IMG/VR virus record: IMGVR_UViG_2526164689_000024
Source: a virus
Taxonomy: Duplodnaviria > Heunggongvirae > Uroviricota > Caudoviricetes
DNA length: 19,202 bases
Reading direction: 5' to 3' (one strand)
Below are positions 8,178 through 19,202 of the stretch, piece after piece. Positions within the stretch are counted from its first letter, which is position 1; each line of letters starts with the position of its first letter. The notes below the pieces were generated by a model that saw only the letters and a list, made by a program, of their open reading frames with translations, was not told the DNA's origin and did no database searches. The position numbers and the translations under genes were made by a program.

Positions 8178-8924
8178 ATGAAAAACATTGCGGCAGCCGG
8201 GGTTCTTGAACGTATTCGCAGACTTGCACCACAGGGGGCGGTTCCACCGTACCGGACGGTGGAGGAGTGGCGGGAATGGCCGCTTGCTGAAGGACGAAAA
8301 CGCAGCGAGGAGATTAACCGCCAGAATCGCCAGTTGCGGGTGGAAAAAATCCTGAATCGTTCGGGCATCCAGCCTCTGCACAGCAAATGCTCGTTTGCGA
8401 ATTATCAGGTGCAGAACGACGGGCAAAAACACGCGCTGAGCCAGGCAAAATCCATCGCTGACGAACTGATGACCGGGTGCACGAATTTTGTGTTCAGCGG
8501 TAAAACCGGCACCGGGAAAAATCACCTTGCAGCGGCGATGGGCAACCGGCTGATGGCGAAGGGGAGCAGCGTGATTATCGTCACCGTGTCTGACGTCATG
8601 AGTGTGTTGCATGACAGCTACGACAACGGCCAGTCCGGGGAAAAATTTTTACAGGAGCTTTGCGGGGTTGATTTGCTGGTCCTGGATGAAATAGGCGTTC
8701 AGCGTGAGACGAAAAACGAGCAGGTGGTATTGCACCAGATAATTGATCGCCGGACAGCATCACTGTGCAGTGTCGGGATGTTAACAAACCTGAATCATGC
8801 CGCAATGAGTACGCTTCTCGGTGAGAGGATTATGGACCGCATGACCATGAACGGTGGTCGATGGGTGACGTTTAACTGGGATAGCTGGCGTCCAAATGTC
8901 AGCAATCAGAGGGTTGTGAAGTAA
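8178..8924 (+). CDS. DnaC-like helicase loader (IstB-like AAA+ ATPase)
   Basis: 248 aa; Walker A GKTGTGKNHLAAA, Walker B LLVLDEIG; directly downstream of the O-like gene. Confidence 0.8.
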   Translation: MKNIAAAGVLERIRRLAPQGAVPPYRTVEEWREWPLAEGRKRSEEINRQNRQLRVEKILNRSGIQPLHSKCSFANYQVQNDGQKHALSQAKSIADELMTGCTNFVFSGKTGTGKNHLAAAMGNRLMAKGSSVIIVTVSDVMSVLHDSYDNGQSGEKFLQELCGVDLLVLDEIGVQRETKNEQVVLHQIIDRRTASLCSVGMLTNLNHAAMSTLLGERIMDRMTMNGGRWVTFNWDSWRPNVSNQRVVK

Positions 8925-8945
8925 TTTTTGTCGGAGGACGTTTTA

Positions 8946-9671
8946 ATGGAAACCGTATTTGACGCACTGAAAGCACTGAAAAAAGCCTCTTCACAGGTAG
9001 TGGCATCGCGCCTTGGAATCAGCCGTGAAGAGGCGGTCAACGAACTGTGGAAACTGAAGCGCCGCGGTGAAGCGGATAACAAGGGGTCGATGTGGTGGCT
9101 GACTCAGGCTGGTGAAAGTGAATCGGTGTCACCGGTACCGAAAGTGACTGCGCAAATGCTGACAGAGGCGATTGAACAACATGGCCCACAAACGGCGGAT
9201 GAACTGGCACTGATGTTCGGAATTACCTCCCGCCGGGCGAATTCATCGCTGGCAATGGCAATCAGCAAAGGGCGTCTGATTCGCGTGAATCAGGGCGGTA
9301 AATTTCGTTACTGCATGCCGGGCGATAATTTACCAGCAGAGCCGGAAGCGGCATCCGCAGCGGAAACGGATGGTAAAGCCTTTCCTCAGCCAGCAGGAGT
9401 TGCGTTACCAGTCCAGGAAACGACGACACAGGAAGAAATGAAAACAGAAATCGAGGAAGACATTGTGAAATTACAGCCATCGGTCACCGAAACGAAAGCA
9501 GATGACCTGATTCTACCATCGCTGCATGTGGCTAACCGCGAACTGCGCCGGGCGAAAAGTGATGTCCAGAAGTGGGAACGAGTCTGTGCCGCGTTGCGGG
9601 AGTTGAACAAGCACCGGGATATTGTTCGGCAGATTGTCGATTCATCCGGTCGTATTGTGTCGGAAAAGTGA
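8946..9671 (+). CDS. hypothetical phage protein with two predicted winged-helix segments and a C-terminal coiled coil (DUF1627-like)
   Basis: ATG at 8946 with GGAGG 8 nt upstream (track start 8928 is TTG); 241 aa; family guess from memory. Confidence 0.5.
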
Positions 9672-9686: not shown

Positions 9687-10082
9687 ATGGCGAAACCTTT
9701 TACACACGAACAGCGTGAAGAACTGAAGGCCCGAATTATCGGGTTGGTACGCAAAAATGAACGCATGACGATATCACAACTGGAGAGAGCGACGGGAGCA
9801 GGCTGGCATTCAGTCAGACGTTGCCTTGTGGATGTACTGGCTTGTGGCGATTTATACATGTCCGGTAAATACGGTGTTTTTGCATCTGAACAGGTGTATC
9901 GCGTATGGCGTAAGACACCGGAGAAAACAACTGACCAGACATTGATTCGAAAGTTACCAGACGGAGAAATACGCCGCTATGACAGGCATAAGAACATAAT
10001 TTGCTGTGAGTGCCGAAATAGCGAAGTCATGCAGCGTGTACTGGCGTTCTGTCAGGGTAATTTTCAGGAGGTGATGGAGTGA
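9687..10082 (+). CDS. hypothetical small protein, N-terminal wHTH-like
   Basis: ATG at 9687 with GGAGG upstream (track start 9672 is TTG); 131 aa; MTISQLERATGAGWHSVRRCL helix-turn-helix-like. Confidence 0.5.
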   Translation: MAKPFTHEQREELKARIIGLVRKNERMTISQLERATGAGWHSVRRCLVDVLACGDLYMSGKYGVFASEQVYRVWRKTPEKTTDQTLIRKLPDGEIRRYDRHKNIICCECRNSEVMQRVLAFCQGNFQEVME

Positions 10083-10381
10083 GGGTGAGAATTTATATCG
10101 CTGGTCCGATGACGGGATATGAAAATTTCAACCGTGATGCGTTTCACAAGGCGGAAGAAGCGCTGAAACGGGAAGGGCATACCGTTTTAAACCCGGCAGT
10201 ACTTCCGGACGGGCTGACTCAGCCACATTACATGGATATTTGCATGGCAATGATTCGTTGTGTGGATGCGGTTTACATGCTGAAAGGCTGGCAGCAGTCG
10301 GCAGGTGCAAGGGCTGAGCTGGCACTGGCGGAGAAACTGGGCCATGCGGTGATTTTTCAGGAGGTGGGCAGTGAATATTGA
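10079..10381 (+). CDS. DUF4406-like protein (nucleoside 2-deoxyribosyltransferase-like fold)
   Basis: 100 aa; IYIAGPMTG near the N-terminus and GW..S.G...E motif, typical of NDT-like Rossmann proteins; GTG start overlapping the upstream stop. Confidence 0.55.
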   Translation: MRVRIYIAGPMTGYENFNRDAFHKAEEALKREGHTVLNPAVLPDGLTQPHYMDICMAMIRCVDAVYMLKGWQQSAGARAELALAEKLGHAVIFQEVGSEY

Positions 10382-10688
10382 CCCGGCGATAACGATTGAT
10401 ATGGCCCTGAACACCGGCCTGGCGCTTCTTGGTTATTTCTACATCATGTTCTGCAGCGGACGATGGCTGTCACTGTTGTTCATGAAAAAATGGAATAAAC
10501 GCCGTAAGCAGGAGCAACGCCAGAAGGCAATGGATGCATTTTTCGAAGCCTTCGGGATTGACAGTATGGAACCAGGGGATCCAGCTCGCGCAATCAGCAG
10601 AGGGGGCGTAGTAATCCTTGTATATCGGAGTGAAGAGAAAAATGACGATCACAAGACAACGTGTAGAAGAAATCATATCCCGCATTGA
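10371..10688 (+). CDS. small membrane protein (one TM helix plus basic tail)
   Basis: GTG start with GGAGG 8 nt upstream; TM segment ALNTGLALLGYFYIMFCSGRWLSLLF; overlaps neighbours at both ends, so start and extent are uncertain. Confidence 0.35.
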   Translation: MNIDPAITIDMALNTGLALLGYFYIMFCSGRWLSLLFMKKWNKRRKQEQRQKAMDAFFEAFGIDSMEPGDPARAISRGGVVILVYRSEEKNDDHKTTCRRNHIPH

Positions 10689-10946: not shown

Positions 10947-11552
10947 GTGAGCAAGATTGACTATCAGGTACTGCGTGAAAAGGCAGAAAAAGCAACGTGT
11001 GGTGAGTGGTCTCTCGAATATGGAGAGAGCCGATTTGATGGTGATGATGCACTAATTCATCGCGAGGCTGCTGGATATATTCCCATTTGCAGAATTGAAG
11101 GAGCGCATCCTGAAAGCGGTTTCGATGAAGATTTCCAAATGGAACAGCAGGCCAATGCTGAATTCATAGCAGAGGCCAATCCGGCTACTGTGCTGGTACT
11201 GCTGGATGAACTGGAAGCCGCAGAGAAGCGCAACGCAAAATTACAAAGCGAGAATGCATACATCCGCAACCGGTACAAAGAACTGGACCTATTAATCGGG
11301 AAAAACATTCTTGTCATGCAGGCTGCGATTATCGAATGGCAGGCAACTGGCGACGCTAAAAGCGGACTGGCATGGATTTATAGCACACTGTTTGGCCCAG
11401 GCGAGTTGCCGGACGAATCTGAGAAAGATGCTCAGGCCTACTTTAATCGCAAATATGCACCGATTGACGAAAAGCTTATGGCGCTTCACAAGTGGTTTTG
11501 GGAACAAAGTGAAGCCGAGCGCGCTGCTGGCATTCGCATCAAAGGAGAGTGA
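10947..11552 (+). CDS. Ead/Ea22-like family protein
   Basis: 201 aa; GTG start with AAGGAGG 6 nt upstream; NPATVLVLLDELEAAEKRNAKLQSEN coiled-coil block typical of Ead/Ea22-like prophage proteins (from memory). Confidence 0.5.
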   Translation: MSKIDYQVLREKAEKATCGEWSLEYGESRFDGDDALIHREAAGYIPICRIEGAHPESGFDEDFQMEQQANAEFIAEANPATVLVLLDELEAAEKRNAKLQSENAYIRNRYKELDLLIGKNILVMQAAIIEWQATGDAKSGLAWIYSTLFGPGELPDESEKDAQAYFNRKYAPIDEKLMALHKWFWEQSEAERAAGIRIKGE

Positions 11553-11553
11553 T

Positions 11554-11877
11554 ATGAGCGCTATTACCAAAGAGCGACTGCTGACAATCAGGCAGTGGCG
11601 CGAAACATACGTACCTGGTAGCAACGTTGTACTGCCAGCAGAAGAAGCGGAAGAACTGGCACGGATTGCTCTGGCATCGCTGGAAGCAGAACCGGTTGGT
11701 AAATTGCATGAATACAAACCAGTGGAGTATCAACGTTCGGTCTACGAGTTAACCATGCTGGTAAAGCAGTTAGCCAGGCATCTGAAGAAAGCGAAGTTGG
11801 ACTGCAAATTACCGGATAAGGCGATGGACTATCTGAAGCGAAATGGACTGATAAGTGTGGAGGATGTTTTACGATGA
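11554..11877 (+). CDS. hypothetical phage protein
   Basis: ATG at 11554 (in frame with track ORF 11311..11877) preceded by AAAGGAGAG; 107 aa. Confidence 0.45.
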   Translation: MSAITKERLLTIRQWRETYVPGSNVVLPAEEAEELARIALASLEAEPVGKLHEYKPVEYQRSVYELTMLVKQLARHLKKAKLDCKLPDKAMDYLKRNGLISVEDVLR

Positions 11878-11957
11878 ACTGGCCTGAAGCCTTTGCAATT
11901 ACAGGCGTTGCTATGGCTATCGCTTTTTTAGTATATGTTATTTGTCGGTGGGGGTAA
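11874..11957 (+). CDS. tiny hydrophobic peptide (27 aa)
   Basis: hand-translated MNWPEAFAITGVAMAIAFLVYVICRWG; ATG overlaps the upstream TGA (ATGA); GGAGG 10 nt upstream; below track length cut-off. Confidence 0.3.
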   Translation: MNWPEAFAITGVAMAIAFLVYVICRWG

Positions 11958-11992
11958 AAACGTTCGCCGGGATTAACACCAAAGGAGGGAAT

Positions 11993-12097
11993 ATGTCGGA
12001 TGATATATCACTGGCAATGGAAGGTGCGCTGGCTGTTGTTGCTGTTGTGGGCGTTTACTGCCTGGTTGTGTTTTTGATGGATCGACTAGGGAACTGA
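11993..12097 (+). CDS. tiny hydrophobic peptide (34 aa)
   Basis: hand-translated MSDDISLAMEGALAVVAVVGVYCLVVFLMDRLGN; strong SD AAAGGAGGG 4-5 nt upstream; one predicted TM helix. Confidence 0.35.
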   Translation: MSDDISLAMEGALAVVAVVGVYCLVVFLMDRLGN

Positions 12098-12127: not shown

Positions 12128-12343
12128 GGTAAAAACGGTTTGCGGTAAAGCGAGAGTTAAGTAGAATTGCTGCGGGTGCTTGAGGCTATCTGCCTCAGGC
12201 ATGAACACCAAAAGGCAGATAGAGAAAAGCCCCAGTTAACATTACGCGTCCTGCAAGACGCTTAACATTAATCTGAGGCCCAATCTATGTCTCACAAATG
12301 TAGGTTAGCCTCTTACGTGCCGAAAGGCAAGGAGAAGCAGGCT

Positions 12344-12499
12344 ATGAAGCAGCAAAAGGCGATGTTAATCGCCCTGATCGTCATCTGTTTAACCGTCATA
12401 GTGACGGCACTGGTAACGAGGAAAGACCTCTGCGAGGTACGAATCCGAACCGGCCAGACGGAGGTCGCTGTCTTCACAGCTTACGAACCTGAGGAGTAA
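12344..12499 (+). CDS. hokD: Hok/Gef-family type I toxin (HokD/RelF-like)
   Basis: 51 aa MKQQKAMLIALIVICLTVIVTALVTRKDLCEVRIRTGQTEVAVFTAYEPEE, matches recalled K-12 HokD; an in-frame upstream ATG at 12287 would give 70 aa; leader contains a 10-bp inverted repeat. Confidence 0.8.
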   Translation: MKQQKAMLIALIVICLTVIVTALVTRKDLCEVRIRTGQTEVAVFTAYEPEE

Positions 12500-14001: not shown

Positions 14002-14367
14002 ATGACTGAACGCATAGAATTTGTTTTGCCTTACCCGCCAACGGTGAACACTTACTGGCGTCGTCGTGGCAGCACATATTTTGTATCAAAAGCCGGGGAG
14101 CGTTATCGCCGGGCAGTGGCGCTTATTGTTCGCCAGCAGCGGCTGAAATTAAGCCTGTCCGGAAGGTTGGCAATAAAAATTATTGCAGAACCACCGGATA
14201 AGCGCCGCCGTGACCTGGACAATATCCTGAAAGCACCACTGGATGCGTTGACGCATGCCGGACTTCTCATAGACGACGAGCAGTTTGATGAAATCAATAT
14301 TGTGCGCGGTCAGCTCGTTCCTGGTGGGCGGCTGGGCGTGAAGATTTACAAAATTGAGAGTGAGTGA
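14002..14367 (+). CDS. rusA: RusA Holliday junction resolvase
   Basis: 121 aa; MTERIEFVLPYPPTVNTYW...RRRDLDNILKAPLDALTHAGLLIDDEQ is the RusA family signature; ATG abuts the upstream stop. Confidence 0.85.
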   Translation: MTERIEFVLPYPPTVNTYWRRRGSTYFVSKAGERYRRAVALIVRQQRLKLSLSGRLAIKIIAEPPDKRRRDLDNILKAPLDALTHAGLLIDDEQFDEINIVRGQLVPGGRLGVKIYKIESE

Positions 14368-14375
14368 TCGTAAAT

Positions 14376-14918
14376 ATGATATACCCGGAAATTACAGGCA
14401 AAAGCGGCGAGCATTTACGTCTAAAAACGCTGGAAGCCGTCTGGATCCAGGGGAAATTACGGATGTGGGGGCGTTGGTCGTATATAGGTGGTAGCAAAAC
14501 AGGAAATATGTTCAATCAGTTGCTGGCATCCAAAAAACTGACAAAAACCGCAATCAATGAAGCCCTGCGTAGAATCAGGGAGTCAGGGATTGATAAACCA
14601 GAGCTGGAAGCATTCTTGCGAGAGATGATCGCTGGCAGACAGAAGAGCTGGTTGTCTCACTGTACTGATGCAGAGGCGTTACGCATTGATGGGGTGATAA
14701 GTAAAGCGCTTGCACGTTATCCTGGATTGATTGATATCCTGCGGCAAAGATACGAAGGGCGGGGGATGAGTAAACGCAAAATGGCTGAATTGTTGAATGA
14801 GGTTCACCCTGAGTGGTGCTATGCAACATGCCGCAATCGTATAGATATGTGGCTGAGAATAGCTGAGTTTATTCTGTATCCACTGATGCGAGATGCATTT
14901 TCTTTTACTGACGCTTAG
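14376..14918 (+). CDS. putative late-gene antiterminator (Q-like)
   Basis: about 180 aa (ATG 14376; track GTG at 14364 overlaps rusA stop); directly after rusA and followed by a noncoding stretch ending in a strong terminator, the PR'-qut-tR' arrangement; no Q motif verified. Confidence 0.4.
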   Translation: MIYPEITGKSGEHLRLKTLEAVWIQGKLRMWGRWSYIGGSKTGNMFNQLLASKKLTKTAINEALRRIRESGIDKPELEAFLREMIAGRQKSWLSHCTDAEALRIDGVISKALARYPGLIDILRQRYEGRGMSKRKMAELLNEVHPEWCYATCRNRIDMWLRIAEFILYPLMRDAFSFTDA

Positions 14919-15083
14919 AATCTGGAGGGCGTTTGTTGTTGCACGAAGAGGATTTTTGGCTGGTAGTAAGGTTTGTGCAGTTTTAGAAAAAAAGCTTGTA
15001 TTTTTAGCCATAAACTGTTTCAATCCAGCTACGCTTCGCAAAGCTGTACCGCGAGGCGAATAGCAGACATGGACACCTGAAAG

Positions 15084-15107
15084 AACCCGCTTTATGCGGG
15101 TTTTTTT
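15084..15107 (+). terminator. rho-independent terminator (tR'-like) about 170 nt downstream of the Q-like gene
   Basis: AACCCGC-tttat-GCGGGTT stem followed by T7. Confidence 0.75.
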
Positions 15108-15230
15108 ATGCCTGAAAAACGGCACAGAACATTAAACGCGCTGGTAGTTGTGAATACTGGTCTTTCAGCTTGCTGGCTTTTTCGACAAGAGGTATTGGTA
15201 TGTCACGTTAACCAGAAAAGGGAAAAAGGC

Positions 15231-15428
15231 ATGCTAAAACAGCAGGATATGACCGAAACCGCCAGAGTGGTGTTTAATGAATTAAGCGTCACCGAACCGG
15301 CGACCGTCGGGGAAATTGCGCAGAATACTTACCTTTCACGCGAACGCTGCCAGTTAATACTGACTCAGCTTGTTATGGCGGGTCTGGCAGATTATCAGTT
15401 CGGTTGTTACAGACGCCTTCCGCAGTGA
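15231..15428 (+). CDS. small winged-helix-like protein
   Basis: 65 aa from internal ATG of track ORF 15108..15428; ATVGEIAQNTYLSRERCQLILTQLVMAGL resembles a wHTH recognition segment. Confidence 0.4.
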   Translation: MLKQQDMTETARVVFNELSVTEPATVGEIAQNTYLSRERCQLILTQLVMAGLADYQFGCYRRLPQ

Positions 15429-15578
15429 AGGCTTTTTAATTTGTGGTAATGGGCGGCTGGTGGGTGTTAGCGGCACCTGCCAGCCATCTGCTCATGCGTT
15501 GGGGTCACAAGCAAACCTCAGGCCCATCTGCTTTGCGCAAAAGCGGCATGAGCCTATCAGAGAAGTGCTTATTGATCT

Positions 15579-16628
15579 ATGATTAATACTGTAAAAATAT
15601 CCAGTTGTGAGTTAATCAACGCTGATTGCCTGGAATTTATCCAGACCTTACCGGAAAACTCTGTCGATCTGATAGTCACAGACCCGCCATACTTTAAAGT
15701 GAAGCCCGAGGGCTGGGATAACCAGTGGGAGGGCGACGATGATTACCTGAAATGGCTGGACCAGTGTCTGGCGCAGTTCTGGCGGGTACTGAAGCCTGCC
15801 GGAAGTCTTTACCTGTTCTGTGGTCATCGCCTGGCATCTGACACCGAAATCATGATGCGTGAGCGCTTTAATGTGCTGAACCACATTATCTGGGCGAAGC
15901 CGTCCGGACGCTGGAACGGGTGCAATAAGGAAAGTCTGCGGGCGTATTTTCCGGCAACAGAGCGCATTCTGTTTGCAGAACATTATCAGGGACCGTATCG
16001 CCCGAAAGATGATGGCTATGTGGAGCAGGGGCGCGAGCTAAAACAGCACGTCATGGCCCCGCTGATTTCTTACTTTCGTGATGCGCGTAAATCACTGGGA
16101 ATAACGTCAAAACAGATAGCGGAAGCCACCGGAAAGAAAAACATGGCTTCGCACTGGTTTGGTATCAGTCAGTGGCAGTTACCGAACGAGGGTGATTACA
16201 ACAAATTGCAGGCGTTGTTTGCGCGTGTTGCGGCAGAAAAACATCAGCGCGGGGAACTGGAAAAGCCACACCACCAGCTGGTCAGCACATACAGTGAGCT
16301 GAACCGGCAGTATACGGAACTGCTGAGTGAATATAAAAATTTGCGGCGGTATTTCGGTGTGACGGCGCAGGTTCCGTACACCGATGTCTGGACGCATAAA
16401 CCGGTGCAGTACTATCCAGGGAAACATCCGTGCGAAAAACCGGCAGAAATGCTGCAGCAGATAATCAACGCGAGCAGTCGTCCGGGAGACCTGGTTGCAG
16501 ATTTTTTTATGGGTTCAGGTTCAACGGTAAAAGCGGCGATGGCACTGGGGCGTTGTGCGATTGGTGTTGAGCTGGAGACCGGACGCTTTGAACAGACAGT
16601 CAGGGAAGTTCAGGATTTAATCGTTTGA
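15579..16628 (+). CDS. DNA methyltransferase, beta-class amino-MTase (N6-adenine or N4-cytosine), apparently orphan
   Basis: 349 aa; DPPY motif (LIVTDPPYF) near the N-terminus and AdoMet motif DFFMGSGST near the C-terminus (motif IV before motif I); no adjacent endonuclease ORF. Confidence 0.8.
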   Translation: MINTVKISSCELINADCLEFIQTLPENSVDLIVTDPPYFKVKPEGWDNQWEGDDDYLKWLDQCLAQFWRVLKPAGSLYLFCGHRLASDTEIMMRERFNVLNHIIWAKPSGRWNGCNKESLRAYFPATERILFAEHYQGPYRPKDDGYVEQGRELKQHVMAPLISYFRDARKSLGITSKQIAEATGKKNMASHWFGISQWQLPNEGDYNKLQALFARVAAEKHQRGELEKPHHQLVSTYSELNRQYTELLSEYKNLRRYFGVTAQVPYTDVWTHKPVQYYPGKHPCEKPAEMLQQIINASSRPGDLVADFFMGSGSTVKAAMALGRCAIGVELETGRFEQTVREVQDLIV

Positions 16629-16676
16629 AACGGATGAGATTGCAGAATTAATTACGCACCATTATTATTCTGCTCC

Positions 16677-16752
16677 CGGCCCTTTAGCTCAGTGGTGAGA
16701 GCGAGCGACTCATAATCGCCAGGTCGCTGGTTCAAATCCAGCAAGGGCCACC
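16677..16752 (+). tRNA. tRNA-Ile2-like (anticodon CAT, probably lysidine-modified; Met cannot be excluded)
   Basis: cloverleaf parsed by hand: acceptor GGCCCTT/AAGGGCC, D-arm GCTC-AGTGGTGA-GAGC, anticodon loop CTCATAA, T-arm GCTGG-TTCAAAT-CCAGC, CCA encoded; very similar to recalled E. coli ileX. Confidence 0.8.
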
Positions 16753-16853
16753 ATCACAAACCGCCATTAGCTTATCAGGAAGAGCAGACGACACCATAAC
16801 AGGGTTGTTGGTGCGGGGGCGGGTCCCCGATGGCGGTCCATTATCGGTATTCT

Positions 16854-16930
16854 GCGTTGTTAGCTCAGCCGGACAGAGCAATTGCCTTCTAAGCAATCGG
16901 TCAGTGGTTCGACTCCACTACAACGCGCCA
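16854..16930 (+). tRNA. tRNA-Arg (anticodon TCT, reads AGA/AGG)
   Basis: cloverleaf parsed by hand: acceptor GCGTTGT/ACAACGC, D-arm GCTC...GAGC, anticodon stem ATTGC/GCAAT with loop CTTCTAA, T-arm AGTGG-TTCGACT-CCACT, CCA encoded. Confidence 0.8.
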
Positions 16931-16943
16931 CACTTATTTTCCA

Positions 16944-16967
16944 GGCTCGCTTCGGCGGGCCTTTTTT
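16944..16967 (+). terminator. rho-independent terminator after the tRNA pair
   Basis: GGCTCGC-ttcg-GCGGGCC (7-bp stem, one G-U pair) followed by TTTTTTG. Confidence 0.65.
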
Positions 16968-17099
16968 GTATCTGCGCCACGCCCGGCGCATATCAACCAC
17001 AGAGCCTTTCGGGGGTGAGCTTACGGAGTGGTCAGTGTGACTTTCTCTGTGGGCAGATCGCTCCCGGGCGTTGGCTCACCCACCCAAAGGAACGTCACG

Positions 17100-17531
17100 A
17101 TGTTTGGAATCTTCAAAAAGAAAACCCGCAGAGCGGCAGCGGAAATTAAAAAGTTTGAGAAACGCGATCTGGCACAGGCGGTGATTAACGCTGCATACCT
17201 GGTGGCCTATGCAGATGGTGAATGCGAGGCATCCGAGAAAGCGAAGATCGAACAGGTCTTACGTAATCAGCCTGCGTTGTCTGCGTTTACCTCGGAAATT
17301 AATGCGATTAGCGCAACTATTATCGGTCAGCTAGATACCAATTTTAAAATTGGTCGTCGTGCCGCGTTACGCGAGATTGAGGATGTGAAACACGATACGC
17401 GTGAAGCGGAAGATGTGCTGGATGTGGCGGTGGCCATTGCGGAGGCAGACGGCGAAATTGAGCCGGAAGAGCGCAAGGTGCTGGAAGAGATTGCCGGTGT
17501 TCTGGGTCTTCGTCTGGAGAATCACCTGTGA
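17100..17531 (+). CDS. TerB-like protein (tellurite-resistance TerB fold)
   Basis: 143 aa from ATG 17100 (AAGGA 8 nt upstream; track ORF begins at an upstream GTG 17028); two ADGE-type motifs AYADGECEASEKAKIEQVL and AEADGEIEPEERKVLEEIAGVLGL and N-terminal MFGIFKKK, parallel to plasmid TerB (MSFFDKVK..., ..SDG..E.., ..SDG...DDEK...IA..LG) as recalled. Confidence 0.65.
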   Translation: MFGIFKKKTRRAAAEIKKFEKRDLAQAVINAAYLVAYADGECEASEKAKIEQVLRNQPALSAFTSEINAISATIIGQLDTNFKIGRRAALREIEDVKHDTREAEDVLDVAVAIAEADGEIEPEERKVLEEIAGVLGLRLENHL

Positions 17532-17695
17532 CGGTAAAACTGCGCCTGGCTGTGGCTGCACTCCTGCTGTTTCTGGTGGTGATGGTGGATTTCACCAGCA
17601 GAATCATGTCGGTGCTGGCGGATGGGGTGCTGGTCTGCGGCATTGTGGTATTGCTGTGGCCGGTGATAAAAAGAAACAGCCTGCATAATGCTTGA
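17528..17695 (+). CDS. small two-helix membrane protein, translationally coupled to the TerB-like gene
   Basis: hand-translated 55 aa VTVKLRLAVAALLLFLVVMVDFTSRIMSVLADGVLVCGIVVLLWPVIKRNSLHNA; GTG overlaps the TerB-like TGA (GTGA); not in track in this frame. Confidence 0.35.
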   Translation: MTVKLRLAVAALLLFLVVMVDFTSRIMSVLADGVLVCGIVVLLWPVIKRNSLHNA

Positions 17696-17862
17696 TTTTT
17701 TTGTTTGCTGTTTATTAAAAACACTTCTGCATGGTGAATCCCCCTGTGCGGAGGGGCGATCAGCAACCAGGTATATGGGATAATCGCGGATTTAGGTGCT
17801 GATACTGAATTCACCGGGAGGCACCCGGCACCATACAAGAAAAAGAATGTGCATGCAAACAT

Positions 17863-17886
17863 GCCCCTCTCCGGAGGGGCTTTTTT
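17863..17886 (+). terminator. strong rho-independent terminator
   Basis: GCCCCTC-tccg-GAGGGGC 7-bp GC-rich stem followed by T6. Confidence 0.8.
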
Positions 17887-17979
17887 ATGGGTAAAAAATG
17901 CCCGAATGGGTTCGGGCAATAGCATGAGATACTGATATTGTTGTGTTGTTATCGTGTGGATTTTAACCAGGGTTTATCA

Positions 17980-18101: not shown

Positions 18102-19202
18102 ATGACATTTAAACATTATGATGTTGTCAGGGCGGCGTCGCCGTCAGACCTTGCGGAAAAGCTGACACACAAACTGAAAGAGGGCTGGCAGCCGTTTGGT
18201 AGTCCGGTGGCCATAACCCCTTATACCCTGATGCAGGCGATTACAGCAGAAGGTGATGTGGTGGTCAGTGGTGCAACTGAGCCGGATTGGTACTACGTCA
18301 TCGTACTGGCCGGGCAGTCCAATGCCATGGCTTACGGTGAAGGGCTTCCGCTGCCGGATTCATACGATGCTCCGGATCCGCGCATTAAACAGCTGGCGCG
18401 CCGCAGTACAGTGACGCCGGGTGGGGCTGCCTGCAGATATAACGATATTATTCCGGCCGACCACTGCCTGCATGATGTGCAGGATATGAGTACGCTGAAT
18501 CATCCGAAGGCAGACCTGAGCAAAGGGCAGTACGGCTGTGTCGGCCAGGGCTTACATATTGCCAAAAAACTGCTCCCGTATATCCCGAATAACGCGGGGA
18601 TCCTGCTGGTACCATGCTGTCGTGGTGGTTCGGCATTCACCCAGGGCGCGGAGGGGACATTCAGTGCGGACACGGGGGCCAGCCAGGATTCGGCACGCTG
18701 GGGTGTGGGTAAACCGTTATATCAGGACCTGATTGCGCGCACTAAAGCTGCATTACAGAAGAACCCGAAAAATGTGTTGCTGGCGGTGTGCTGGATGCAG
18801 GGAGAGTTTGACATGAGCGCCGCCACCCACGCACAGCAACCTGCGCTGTTTACAGCCATGCTGACACAGTTTCGTGCTGACCTCTCCGTGTTTAACGCGC
18901 AGTGCCATGGTGGCAGTGCTGCAGATGTGCCGTGGATTTGTGGTGACACGACGTATTACTGGAAAAATACATACGCTACCCAGTACGACACCGTGTACGG
19001 CGGGTATAAAAACAGGGAGAGTGAGGGCGTTTATTTTGTGCCCTTCATGACAGACGGTAACGGTGTCAATACCGCCACTAACGCGCCGGCAGAAGATCCG
19101 GATATTCCGGCATCAGGATATTACGGTGCGGCATCGAGAACGAATGGAAACCAGGTATCATCAAACCGCCCGACACATTTCAGTTCATGGGCGCGCAGGA
19201 GC
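18102..19202 (+). CDS. nanS-p: NanS-p-type 9-O-acetyl sialate esterase (DUF1737 N-terminal domain plus SASA/SGNH esterase), 3' end beyond window
   Basis: open frame from ATG 18102 (GGGAGG SD) to the window end, 367 codons without stop, hand-translated: MTFKHYDVVRAASPSDLAEKL...VIVLAGQSNAMAYGEGLP (GQSN esterase motif); matches the family found downstream of stx in Stx phages; absent from track because no stop lies in the window. Confidence 0.7.
   Translation, partial: MTFKHYDVVRAASPSDLAEKLTHKLKEGWQPFGSPVAITPYTLMQAITAEGDVVVSGATEPDWYYVIVLAGQSNAMAYGEGLPLPDSYDAPDPRIKQLARRSTVTPGGAACRYNDIIPADHCLHDVQDMSTLNHPKADLSKGQYGCVGQGLHIAKKLLPYIPNNAGILLVPCCRGGSAFTQGAEGTFSADTGASQDSARWGVGKPLYQDLIARTKAALQKNPKNVLLAVCWMQGEFDMSAATHAQQPALFTAMLTQFRADLSVFNAQCHGGSAADVPWICGDTTYYWKNTYATQYDTVYGGYKNRESEGVYFVPFMTDGNGVNTATNAPAEDPDIPASGYYGAASRTNGNQVSSNRPTHFSSWARRS

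Follow-up and report, generated by a model that had tools for sequence, protein, structure and literature searches.

Described systems related to the locus

The closest described relative of the gene pair analysed here is the tci locus of phage P1, in which a TerB-type gene (tciA) is followed on the same strand by an abutting or overlapping gene for a DUF3927 protein of approximately 54 amino acids (tciB) and then by tciC; the names come from the P1 annotation (Lobocka et al. 2004). In P1, tRNA genes adjoin the pair, a DNA methyltransferase gene lies upstream, and tciABC is located downstream of the C1-operator-controlled Pban, with no plus-strand promoter annotated between them in the record. 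About half of the P1 subgroup-1 elements have lost tciABC, and all three tci genes were found to be non-essential by CRISPRi in P1. A search of the literature on tciA/tciB, on DUF3927, and on TerB in prophages or anti-defence turned up no functional study.

Several other systems share the TerB domain. In the ter (terZABCDEF) operons, which are known for tellurite resistance, phage inhibition and colicin resistance, TerB has the multi-pass protein TerC as partner; it has been described as an amphitropic peripheral membrane protein, and its solved structure is 2JXU. TerB-like domains thought to act at the membrane are also present in SngA of Shango, BnzA of Bunzi and DinB of Dionysus, which reside in defence islands together with a helicase/ATPase, or with a pore-forming toxin and a MAEBL protein (for Dionysus, the gene content follows a preprint). 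Finally, in the host proteins DjlA and YebE (DUF533), a TerB-like domain is tethered to the inner membrane.

With respect to genomic position, the comparison is with the Stx-converting phages. Moron coding sequences with convergent small RNAs (sRNAs) downstream of PR' have been described by Tree et al. 2014 (PMC4104026), and the sRNA gene STnc100 has been reported downstream of stx2B in Stx2 phages (PMC12370729).

Identity and coupling of the gene pair

The window, i.e. the whole stretch of 19,202 nucleotides analysed here, contains two overlapping genes on the plus strand, as the original prediction had it. The first, at 17100-17531, has an ATG start and a TGA stop, is preceded by the Shine-Dalgarno sequence AAGGAA 7 nucleotides 5' of the ATG, and encodes a 143-aa protein of the TerB family. 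The second, at 17528-17695, starts with GTG, ends with TGA and encodes a 55-aa DUF3927 protein; its start overlaps the stop of the first gene as GTGA, and a GGAG motif lies 7 nucleotides 5' of it. The larger protein matches PHROG 632 from end to end (E-value 1.7e-69, residues 1-143 on profile positions 1-143) and the smaller one matches PHROG 1470 over its full length (E-value 4e-30). Judging by these profile matches, the two genes are almost certainly tciA and tciB of phage P1, and we consider both the identity and the anatomy of the locus, as described below, to be near certain. Whether this pairing had been described was left open originally; it is not new, given that the same pair is annotated in the records of P1, D6, JLK-2012 and Pollock, and its annotation in RefSeq is routine. 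Nor is the pair a moron for which some other function has been worked out, the case named in the original prediction, as no characterised function was found.

The locus nevertheless differs from its P1 counterpart in several respects. TciA of P1 is only 42% identical to TciA encoded here, and the P1 pair lies downstream of Pban, whereas the pair in the window is part of the late operon, probably dependent on Q, of a lambdoid prophage. Furthermore, P1 and D6 have the third gene, tciC, for a single-helix protein of 35 aa; in both, a hydrophobic open reading frame of 36-37 aa is located 164 nucleotides past the end of the tciA match. No tciC homolog is present in the window, where STnc100 occupies that position, or in most of the other carriers, so tciC is not needed for membership in the module. 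A 31-aa open reading frame at 17688-17783, which overlaps the tciB stop, was considered as an equivalent of tciC and rejected, being contained within STnc100 and showing no resemblance to TciC of P1.

TciA and TciB proteins

TciA is a soluble, cytoplasmic protein of the TerB family with a predicted all-helical structure. The Pfam TerB profile (PF05099) matches residues 26-138 with 60.2 bits (cut-off 24.4, E-value 2.9e-16), covering profile positions 2-109 of 118, and a profile built from TciA and its homologs matches the Klebsiella pneumoniae TerB structure 2JXU over residues 13-137 (E-value 6.3e-17); the TerB assignment made from the sequence alone is thereby borne out. TciA contains two ADGE-type motifs, D39-G40-x5-E46 and D117-G118-x5-E124, all six residues of which are invariant in 23 homologs with 51-92% identity. 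The AF2 model (pLDDT 88.6, pTM 0.83) consists of helices only, and the best folds in a Foldseek search are the TerB-like 2h5n and 2ou3 (TM-scores 0.45-0.55, E-values 0.015-0.6), with 2JXU absent among the 50 best matches listed. TciA resembles TerB of the ter operons in its size, near-full-length homology, predicted all-helical structure and possession of two D-G-x5-E motifs; however, tciA is phage-borne, no other ter gene is located near it, and in place of the multi-pass TerC its partner is a 55-aa hairpin. No transmembrane segment was found in TciA, but its N-terminus has a net charge of +6 and is conserved as a hydrophobic stretch followed by a polybasic one (MFGxFKKK..R). Weak matches to DjlA (E-value 1e-6) and DUF533/YebE (23.9 bits) both fall under the family cut-offs.

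TciB is a hydrophobic two-helix hairpin that carries positive charges at either end. Its match to DUF3927 (PF13064) scores 62.3 bits (cut-off 25), and hydropathy analysis places the hydrophobic segments at approximately residues 5-22 and 26-47, with K4/R6 and K48/R49 on their flanks. Two acidic residues, D21 and D32, are conserved, and the motifs D-F-T/A-S and A-D-G are kept even in distant homologs. These features, together with the co-occurrence of the two genes detailed below, agree with the initial description of the 55-aa product as a conserved, coupled membrane peptide.

Comparison of alleles indicates strong purifying selection on tciA (pN/pS of 0.033 among 37 alleles), with a pN/pS of 0.395 for tciB (10 alleles); on these values, the features of the two genes do not reflect chance. 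Several apparent TerB-DUF3927 fusions were dismissed as evidence of natural fusion: P0124 and P0186 are near-identical Escherichia coli sequences with a frameshift at the overlap, and P0250, P0265 and P0292 are seemingly chimeric or frameshifted calls.

A cargo cassette in the stxAB slot

The organization of the late region, which was recognized at the outset as that of Stx-converting phages, is corroborated by Pfam matches, by the sequence itself and by the annotation of a matching prophage (L001). All the elements up to the pair are on the plus strand. The Q-like late antiterminator gene at 14364-14918 (DUF1133, E-value 4.7e-101; Phage_antitermQ, 28.6 bits), which L001 annotates as a DUF1133 family protein, is followed at 15086-15107 by a tR'-like terminator (AACCCGC-TTTAT-GCGGGTT, then a T run) that was read by eye from the sequence and was missed by the automatic terminator scan. 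An N6/N4 DNA methyltransferase gene at 15579-16628 (Pfam N6_N4_Mtase, E-value 2.6e-44), whose DNA is 88% identical in the Stx2a phage L004, precedes two tRNA genes detected by ARAGORN: an ileZ-like tRNA-Ile2 gene with the anticodon CAT at 16678-16753 (Rfam tRNA, 72.5 bits) and an argO-like tRNA-Arg gene with the anticodon TCT at 16854-16930 (67.3 bits). ARAGORN names the former tRNA-Met, whereas in RefSeq the identical gene of L001 is tRNA-Ile. An intrinsic terminator detected by the scan at 16943-16970, with its hairpin at 16943-16962 (8 pairs, 6 of them GC, and a T run), is the last element on the left side that is common with Stx phages.

On the right side, the STnc100 sRNA gene occupies 17700-17892 on the plus strand (Rfam RF02076, full model, 140.3 bits with a gathering score of 47) and ends in a terminator at 17863-17880; the same element is found 3' of stx2B in Stx2 phages. 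Convergent with it, the gene for the anti-GcvB sRNA AgvB lies on the minus strand at 17893-17954 (RF02702, full model, 96.5 bits with a gathering score of 56) and has a minus-strand terminator at 17918-17899; the reverse complement of this segment includes ACACAACA, which has been reported as the GcvB-target consensus (PMC4104026). Both sRNA genes, identified here through Rfam, had been overlooked in the original prediction. Their convergent arrangement between the cargo and nanS-p is the one described in PMC4104026. The 5' part of nanS-p, on the plus strand from 18102 until it runs off the window at 19202, encodes a SASA-family carbohydrate esterase, as annotated at the corresponding position of L001, and is 72% identical to the open reading frame that follows stx2B in L004. 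Upstream of the pair, no Rfam match to a riboswitch or leader RNA was obtained in 16979-17099.

The boundaries of the exchanged segment were located by blastn against L004. Homology covers 15096-16978, breaks there and restarts at 17711, which confirms that the pair sits in the stxAB slot. The plus-strand cassette of 732 bp at 16979-17710 (leader, tciA and tciB) has as its counterpart positions 5340-6708 of L004, a segment of 1369 bp that holds stx2A and stx2B. The left flank (methylase, ileZ and arg tRNAs, terminator) and the right flank (STnc100, then an anti-sRNA from the AgvB/AsxR group in convergent orientation, then nanS-p) are the same for both cargoes, whereas stxAB is unrelated to tciAB in sequence and in function. 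Of the 223 flank-sharing records named Stx-converting, none is found among the 130 TciA-encoding phage records. Thus, in this lambdoid prophage, tciA-tciB is cargo of the PR' moron slot, alternative to stxAB, and for the biology of Stx phages the boundaries at 16978 and 17711 show an exchange of cargo between fixed tRNA and sRNA flanks.

Expression

A simple consensus scan found no sigma-70-like promoter on the plus strand of 16963-17100, and a terminator lies directly upstream of the cassette. The scan may overlook weak or non-sigma-70 promoters, so that the pair might also be expressed in lysogens. The nearest terminator 3' of tciB, 168 nucleotides past the stop, is that of STnc100; of the two terminators said to bracket the pair, both hairpins are present, but the downstream one belongs to STnc100 and not to tciB. 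Given this layout, tciAB would be transcribed only when Q permits read-through of tR' and of the post-tRNA terminator, and would be made in the course of lytic development, as is stx2. Expression of the pair in the lytic phase therefore appears likely, and the position of the P1 copy downstream of Pban, together with the surroundings of the pair and of TerB homologs in other phages (Pollock, Asesino, PMBT3, Cygsa01 and a Klebsiella lambdoid phage, see below), points the same way.

Distribution across phages and bacterial genomes

To annotators of EHEC prophages or P1-like elements, the pair is an ordinary object. Of 5426 complete E. coli genomes, 1145 carry it, at a median of 4 places each; a pair under strong purifying selection is thus found in about one-fifth of these genomes, often in at least four copies. 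Searches of viral contigs with a profile of the TciA alignment retrieved only E. coli prophage fragments with 97-100% identity, and the profile search of genome contigs yielded only 9 enterobacterial loci. Because these searches gave little variety, the diversity of TciA was drawn from the annotated phage collection.

Among the fetched loci, TciB is encoded beside TciA, at -30 to 0 nucleotides, in 177 of the 184 instances. Gene order and coupling are kept in lambdoid, P1-like, N4-like and jumbo phages, with TciA identity down to 28-42%, and in divergent phages a small hydrophobic open reading frame directly 3' of the TerB gene is retained. It follows that tciA and tciB are translationally coupled and move together across unrelated phages. 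The surroundings vary: the pair is sited past the RNAP2 gene in the virulent N4-like phage Pollock and at the start of the genome in the jumbo Erwinia phage Asesino, and the order in a Klebsiella lambdoid phage is Q, tciA, endolysin. Proximity of TciA-type genes to tRNA genes showed a provisional 12-fold local enrichment. In the Pseudomonas phages PMBT3 and Cygsa01, TerB homologs are found among genes for replication and nucleotide metabolism, and a recognisable TciB is missing beside several TerB genes of Pseudomonas and Vibrio phages. Conversely, phages 434 and 2B8 encode TciB without a TciA match (TciB of 434 comes after an unrelated membrane protein of 247 aa), which indicates that TciB does not strictly depend on TciA.

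Possible functions of the pair

Taking all these data together, we somewhat favor the explanation that tciAB, as cargo of the PR' slot, is a TerB module tethered to the membrane and active in lytic growth. TciB would be inserted in the inner membrane, both of its ends facing the cytoplasm, and would hold TciA at the membrane, a tethering to which the polybasic N-terminus of the otherwise transmembrane-free TciA, its weak similarity to DjlA and DUF533/YebE and the amphitropic nature ascribed to TerB lend support. The pair could then be viewed as a two-gene version of the membrane-tethered DjlA/YebE, or of TerB plus TerC, except that, unlike in DjlA and YebE, a gene of its own would supply the tether and no J domain is present here. 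At the membrane, the pair would most likely sense or buffer a perturbation of cations or of the envelope and might thereby keep the membrane of the infected cell intact until programmed lysis; candidate threats include superinfecting phages, pore-forming colicins and membrane-acting abortive-infection effectors. We propose this protective role as a hypothesis, and any benefit in the lytic cycle would be conditional because the tci genes are non-essential by CRISPRi in P1.

The principal rival, which we consider possible but distinctly less probable, is that TciA and TciB are made in the lysogen and block or abort infection by other phages, as the TerB-bearing systems Shango, Bunzi and Dionysus would do, or in the way that ter operons inhibit phages. 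Validated defence systems contain TerB domains, which have been proposed to form a membrane-surveillance module there; the R478 ter cluster inhibits phages and gives resistance to colicins (cited in PMC6799933); and the pair occupies a classic moron slot and is kept in many copies in EHEC genomes (median of 4 places). However, the best PADLOC match of TciA, in a library (PADLOC-DB) that predates Dionysus, is PDC-S48, an unrelated candidate, with an E-value of 0.0035 over 35 residues, and TciB has none. In contrast to the defence-island systems, no helicase, ATPase, pore-forming or MAEBL partner gene adjoins tciAB, either in the window or in L001. Moreover, the pair has no promoter of its own that we could find and follows a terminator, its P1 copy is downstream of the C1-repressed Pban, and N4-like and jumbo phages that are strictly virulent, never forming lysogens, also carry it. 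An exclusion or abortive-infection role, as put forward in the original prediction, is therefore not the best fit, and the virulent carriers, the repressor-controlled P1 copy and the lack of an own promoter are the reasons why we prefer a module of lytic growth to lysogen defence.

A bolder reading, to which we would give slightly less credence than to lysogen defence, is that temperate and virulent phages share tciAB as a module for counter-defence or for protection of the infection in the lytic cycle. Here, the tethered TerB sensor would neutralise membrane-targeting abortive-infection effectors, pore-forming colicins or superinfecting phages, and the repeated siting of the pair in phage tRNA clusters would mark an island that keeps the infected cell working and would not be a coincidence.

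A role in the timing of lysis, with TciB as a holin modulator or antiholin-like factor and TciA as its cytoplasmic regulator, seems rather improbable. It would be compatible with the position of the lambdoid pair between Q and the lysis genes, just upstream of holin-endolysin, with which it would be co-transcribed, with the conserved, membrane-embedded acidic residues of TciB, and with a size and topology like those of small phage membrane proteins. Yet the pair is not located beside lysis genes in P1, D6, N4-like or jumbo phages, and Pfam and PHROG searches revealed no sequence match to holin or antiholin families.

Marginally less probable still is that the pair is a near-neutral passenger spread by recombination anchors such as the tRNA genes and the sRNA/nanS-p sequences. 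The non-essentiality of the pair in P1, the loss of tciABC from about half of the subgroup-1 elements and the mosaic flanks would all be expected of a passenger; the strong purifying selection on tciA (pN/pS 0.033) and the retention of order and coupling across lambdoid, P1-like, N4-like and jumbo phages would not. Tellurite or metal resistance of the lysogen, at which the database name hints, is very unlikely: TciA is homologous to TerB of the ter operon and its acidic motifs would be compatible with metal binding, but terC, terD, terE and terZ are absent from the window and from the matching prophage, published accounts of P1-like and D6-like elements term the operon incomplete, and the promoter scan gave no sign of expression in lysogens. 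Since TerB domains are now appearing in validated defence systems, this minimal, two-protein phage version could be a handy model for what the TerB domain senses at the membrane.

Results and discussion

The 143-aa and 55-aa proteins encoded by tciA (17100-17531, + strand) and tciB (17528-17695, + strand) lie in a late region that contains all the features listed in the original prediction. Upstream of tciA are genes for a Q-like late antiterminator (DUF1133 and Phage_antitermQ) and an N6/N4 DNA methylase (Pfam match), and two + strand tRNA genes detected by ARAGORN, one with the anticodon CAT (16678-16753; RefSeq calls the identical gene tRNA-Ile) and a tRNA-Arg (TCT; 16854-16930), followed by a terminator-like hairpin (16943-16962, + strand) found in the terminator scan. 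Downstream of tciB, the SASA-family esterase gene nanS-p starts at 18102 according to the annotation of the matching prophage. A tR'-like hairpin 3' of the Q gene (approximately 15086-15107; AACCCGC TTTAT GCGGGTT, then T7) was missed by the automatic terminator scan, and Rfam hits to isrK and AgrB over 15004-15109 are weak and below threshold.

Alignment with the Stx2a phage Stx2a_1447, used as the reference (gene order: methylase, ileZ, argN, argO, stx2A, stx2B, nanS-p homologue), showed homology over 15096-16978, resuming at 17711. Therefore, the cassette at 16979-17710 (732 bp: a 121-nt leader, tciA and tciB) stands in for the 1369 bp that hold stx2AB, as anticipated from the gene order. 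There is no overlap between the 223 flank-sharing records named Stx-converting and the 130 phage records encoding TciA; thus, the two cargos look like alternatives. Farther from the slot, a sok antitoxin RNA (12174-12349; Rfam, 121.7 bits) adjoins the hokD-type toxin gene of the matching prophage, whose annotated early region also includes dicB and a YdaT-family gene.

The assignment of TciA to the TerB family holds: the protein matches Pfam TerB with 60.2 bits (cut-off 24.4), PHROG 632 over its full length (E = 1.7e-69) and, with residues 13-137 of its profile, the solved structure of Klebsiella pneumoniae TerB (2JXU; E = 6.3e-17). The motifs D39-G40-x5-E46 and D117-G118-x5-E124 are conserved without exception in 23 homologues (51-92% identity), as are G3 and K7 of the N-terminus, MFGIFKKKTRRAAAEIKK, which has a net charge of +6. 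The confident AF2 model (pLDDT 88.6, pTM 0.83) is all-helical, and its top PDB folds are TerB-like (2h5n, 2ou3), yet with TM-scores of only 0.45-0.55. Hydropathy analysis found no hydrophobic segment in TciA (maximum KD19, 1.0). The ATG start is preceded by AAGGAA at 7 nt.

The coupled membrane peptide was likewise recovered. TciB, translated from a GTG start with GGAG 7 nt upstream and overlapping the tciA stop as GTGA, matches Pfam DUF3927 (62.3 bits; cut-off 25) and the 'TciB-like' PHROG 1470 (E = 4e-30). Its two hydrophobic stretches (approximately 5-22 and 26-47) have D-F-T-S-R between them and K4/R6 and K48/R49 at the outer ends, a pattern that fits an in-out-in hairpin. This small family counts 62 representatives at E <=0.001 among 1.84 billion, and its distant members retain D-F-(T/A)-S, A-D-G and W-P-x-(I/L)-K. 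Two E. coli database proteins, P0124 (197 aa; representing 5 member sequences and named 'zinc-finger family protein') and P0186 (170 aa), join TciA and TciB in one frame via a frameshift at the GTGA overlap; these fusions are probably sequencing or mutational artefacts. A 193-aa ORF on the opposite strand (17344-17925), spanning tciA, tciB and the sRNA gene STnc100, lacks support and is in all likelihood spurious.

A TciB gene lies at -30 to 0 nt from the TciA gene in 177 of 184 cases, a count from 182 highly redundant sequences. Even in loci missed by the TciB model, the TciA gene is directly followed by a short hydrophobic ORF: 60 aa with WPVIK retained in the jumbo Erwinia phage Asesino, 49 aa in Ca. 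Pantoea communis, and 73 aa with one helix in Pseudomonas phage AF. In Ca. Pantoea communis (L096, 8861-12082), four TerB-like ORFs follow one another on a single strand (8861-9247, 10001-10429, 11236-11598 and 11714-12082), the top-scoring one directly preceding the 49-aa ORF. TerB occurs without TciB in Vibrio K481, PMBT3 and Cygsa01. Conversely, phages 434 and 2B8 have a TciB match and are absent among the TciA matches listed; in phage 434 (L182, 1612-2844), TciB occupies the Q-to-nanS-p slot with no TerB gene, preceded by an unrelated 247-aa membrane protein (no Pfam family) and followed by another membrane protein, of 62 aa. TciA of E. coli lambdoid prophages is 68-76% identical to its homologues in Asesino, ChrisDB and pSal-SNUABM-04, jumbo phages of Erwinia and Salmonella, and only 42% identical to P1 TciA. 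A P1-type allele, sharing 84-87% identity with P1, is also found behind ileZ-argN-argO in lambdoid contexts. These identities imply that phages of very different types have recently exchanged the module.

The possible novelty of the pairing did not survive. Both genes bear the names tciA and tciB in the records of JLK-2012, P1, D6, Pollock and other phages, a 100% identical locus adjoins potC in an E. coli O111:H11 prophage, and the slot itself has been published (PMC4104026). The sequence is present in 1145 of the 5426 complete E. coli genomes, typically at 4 (median) and at most at 10 places per carrier. Papers on P1-like and D6-like elements treat the tci genes as putative morons of untested function, a CRISPRi screen found P1 tciA, tciB and the third gene, tciC, all non-essential, and our literature search for tciA/tciB function found no functional study. 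The pair is already named, catalogued and common.

A promoter scan of the window found no sigma-70-like + strand site in the interval from the post-tRNA terminator to tciA. We therefore infer that transcription of tciAB needs Q-modified polymerase reading through tR' and the post-tRNA terminator, as for stx2. In P1, tciABC has Pban with its C1 operator upstream, and no + strand promoter is annotated in between. Among virulent phages, the pair follows the RNAP2 gene in N4-like Pollock and in its relatives from Salmonella and Shigella; Asesino carries it too, and related jumbo phages of Erwinia and Salmonella encode a TciA homologue (68-76% identical to that of the window) at the same early genome position. 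TerB homologues of Pseudomonas phages sit amid replication and nucleotide-metabolism genes, and the order in a Klebsiella lambdoid phage is Q, tciA(B), endolysin. These observations point to lytic development rather than the lysogen as the time of tciAB expression.

We propose that TciB would form an inner-membrane hairpin holding TciA on the cytoplasmic face, and that the complex, active in lytic growth, might sense or buffer cation or envelope perturbation and so keep the infected cell intact up to programmed lysis. The tether is suggested by the translational coupling and the conserved polybasic N-terminus of TciA, by its weak similarity to the membrane-tethered TerB-like DjlA and DUF533/YebE, and by published accounts that describe TerB as an amphitropic peripheral membrane protein. 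The protective role, the weakest step of the model, draws on the phage inhibition and colicin resistance conferred by ter operons, as cited in PMC6799933. Rival roles are lysis timing and tellurite resistance (RefSeq names the O111:H11 genes 'tellurite resistance TerB family protein' and 'DUF3927 family protein'). Carriage as a neutral passenger is another; purifying selection acts on both genes (pN/pS 0.033 for 37 tciA alleles and 0.395 for 10 tciB alleles). Lysogen defence, originally predicted as an exclusion, abortive-infection or envelope-stress module, is possible but not favoured, given the phyletic and regulatory context, a PADLOC search that gave nothing for the pair, and the absence of partner effector genes.

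The terminators thought to bracket the pair both correspond to terminator-like + strand hairpins (16943-16962 and 17863-17880), but the second belongs to STnc100, a full-length sRNA gene (17700-17892, + strand; Rfam, 140 bits) that begins 5 nt past the tciB stop. It converges with a full-length gene for the anti-GcvB sRNA AgvB (17893-17954, - strand; 96.5 bits; terminator hairpin 17918-17899); both had been overlooked. The hexamer CATAAT at 17684-17689, within the 3' end of tciB, would fit an STnc100 promoter with a start near 17700, and STnc100 could here be either an independent transcript or a tciAB 3'UTR product. Exactly this layout, with moron genes 3' of the Q-antiterminated PR', then convergent sRNAs, then a conserved ORF, was described for the Sakai prophages Sp3, 4, 5, 9, 10, 11, 15 and 17 (Tree et al. 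2014; PMC4104026). An STnc100 copy also lies 75 nt 3' of stx2B (PMC12370729).

Finally, tciA(B) is repeatedly found among same-strand tRNA genes of varying identity in unrelated phages (window 16678-16930; loci L002, L005, L008, L090, L183, L185 and L187): Ile2 and Arg in the window, Asn/Thr/Gly in JLK-2012, Asn/Thr upstream and Ile2 downstream in P1 and D6, Trp/Cys plus five more in Asesino, and Thr in the Klebsiella lambdoid phage. Over 20 representative, not fully independent loci, tRNA genes occur at a density of 0.28 per kb up to 1.5 kb from tciA and of 0.023 per kb beyond that distance, a proximity that could stem from a shared accessory region, from tRNA genes acting as recombination anchors, or from a functional link.
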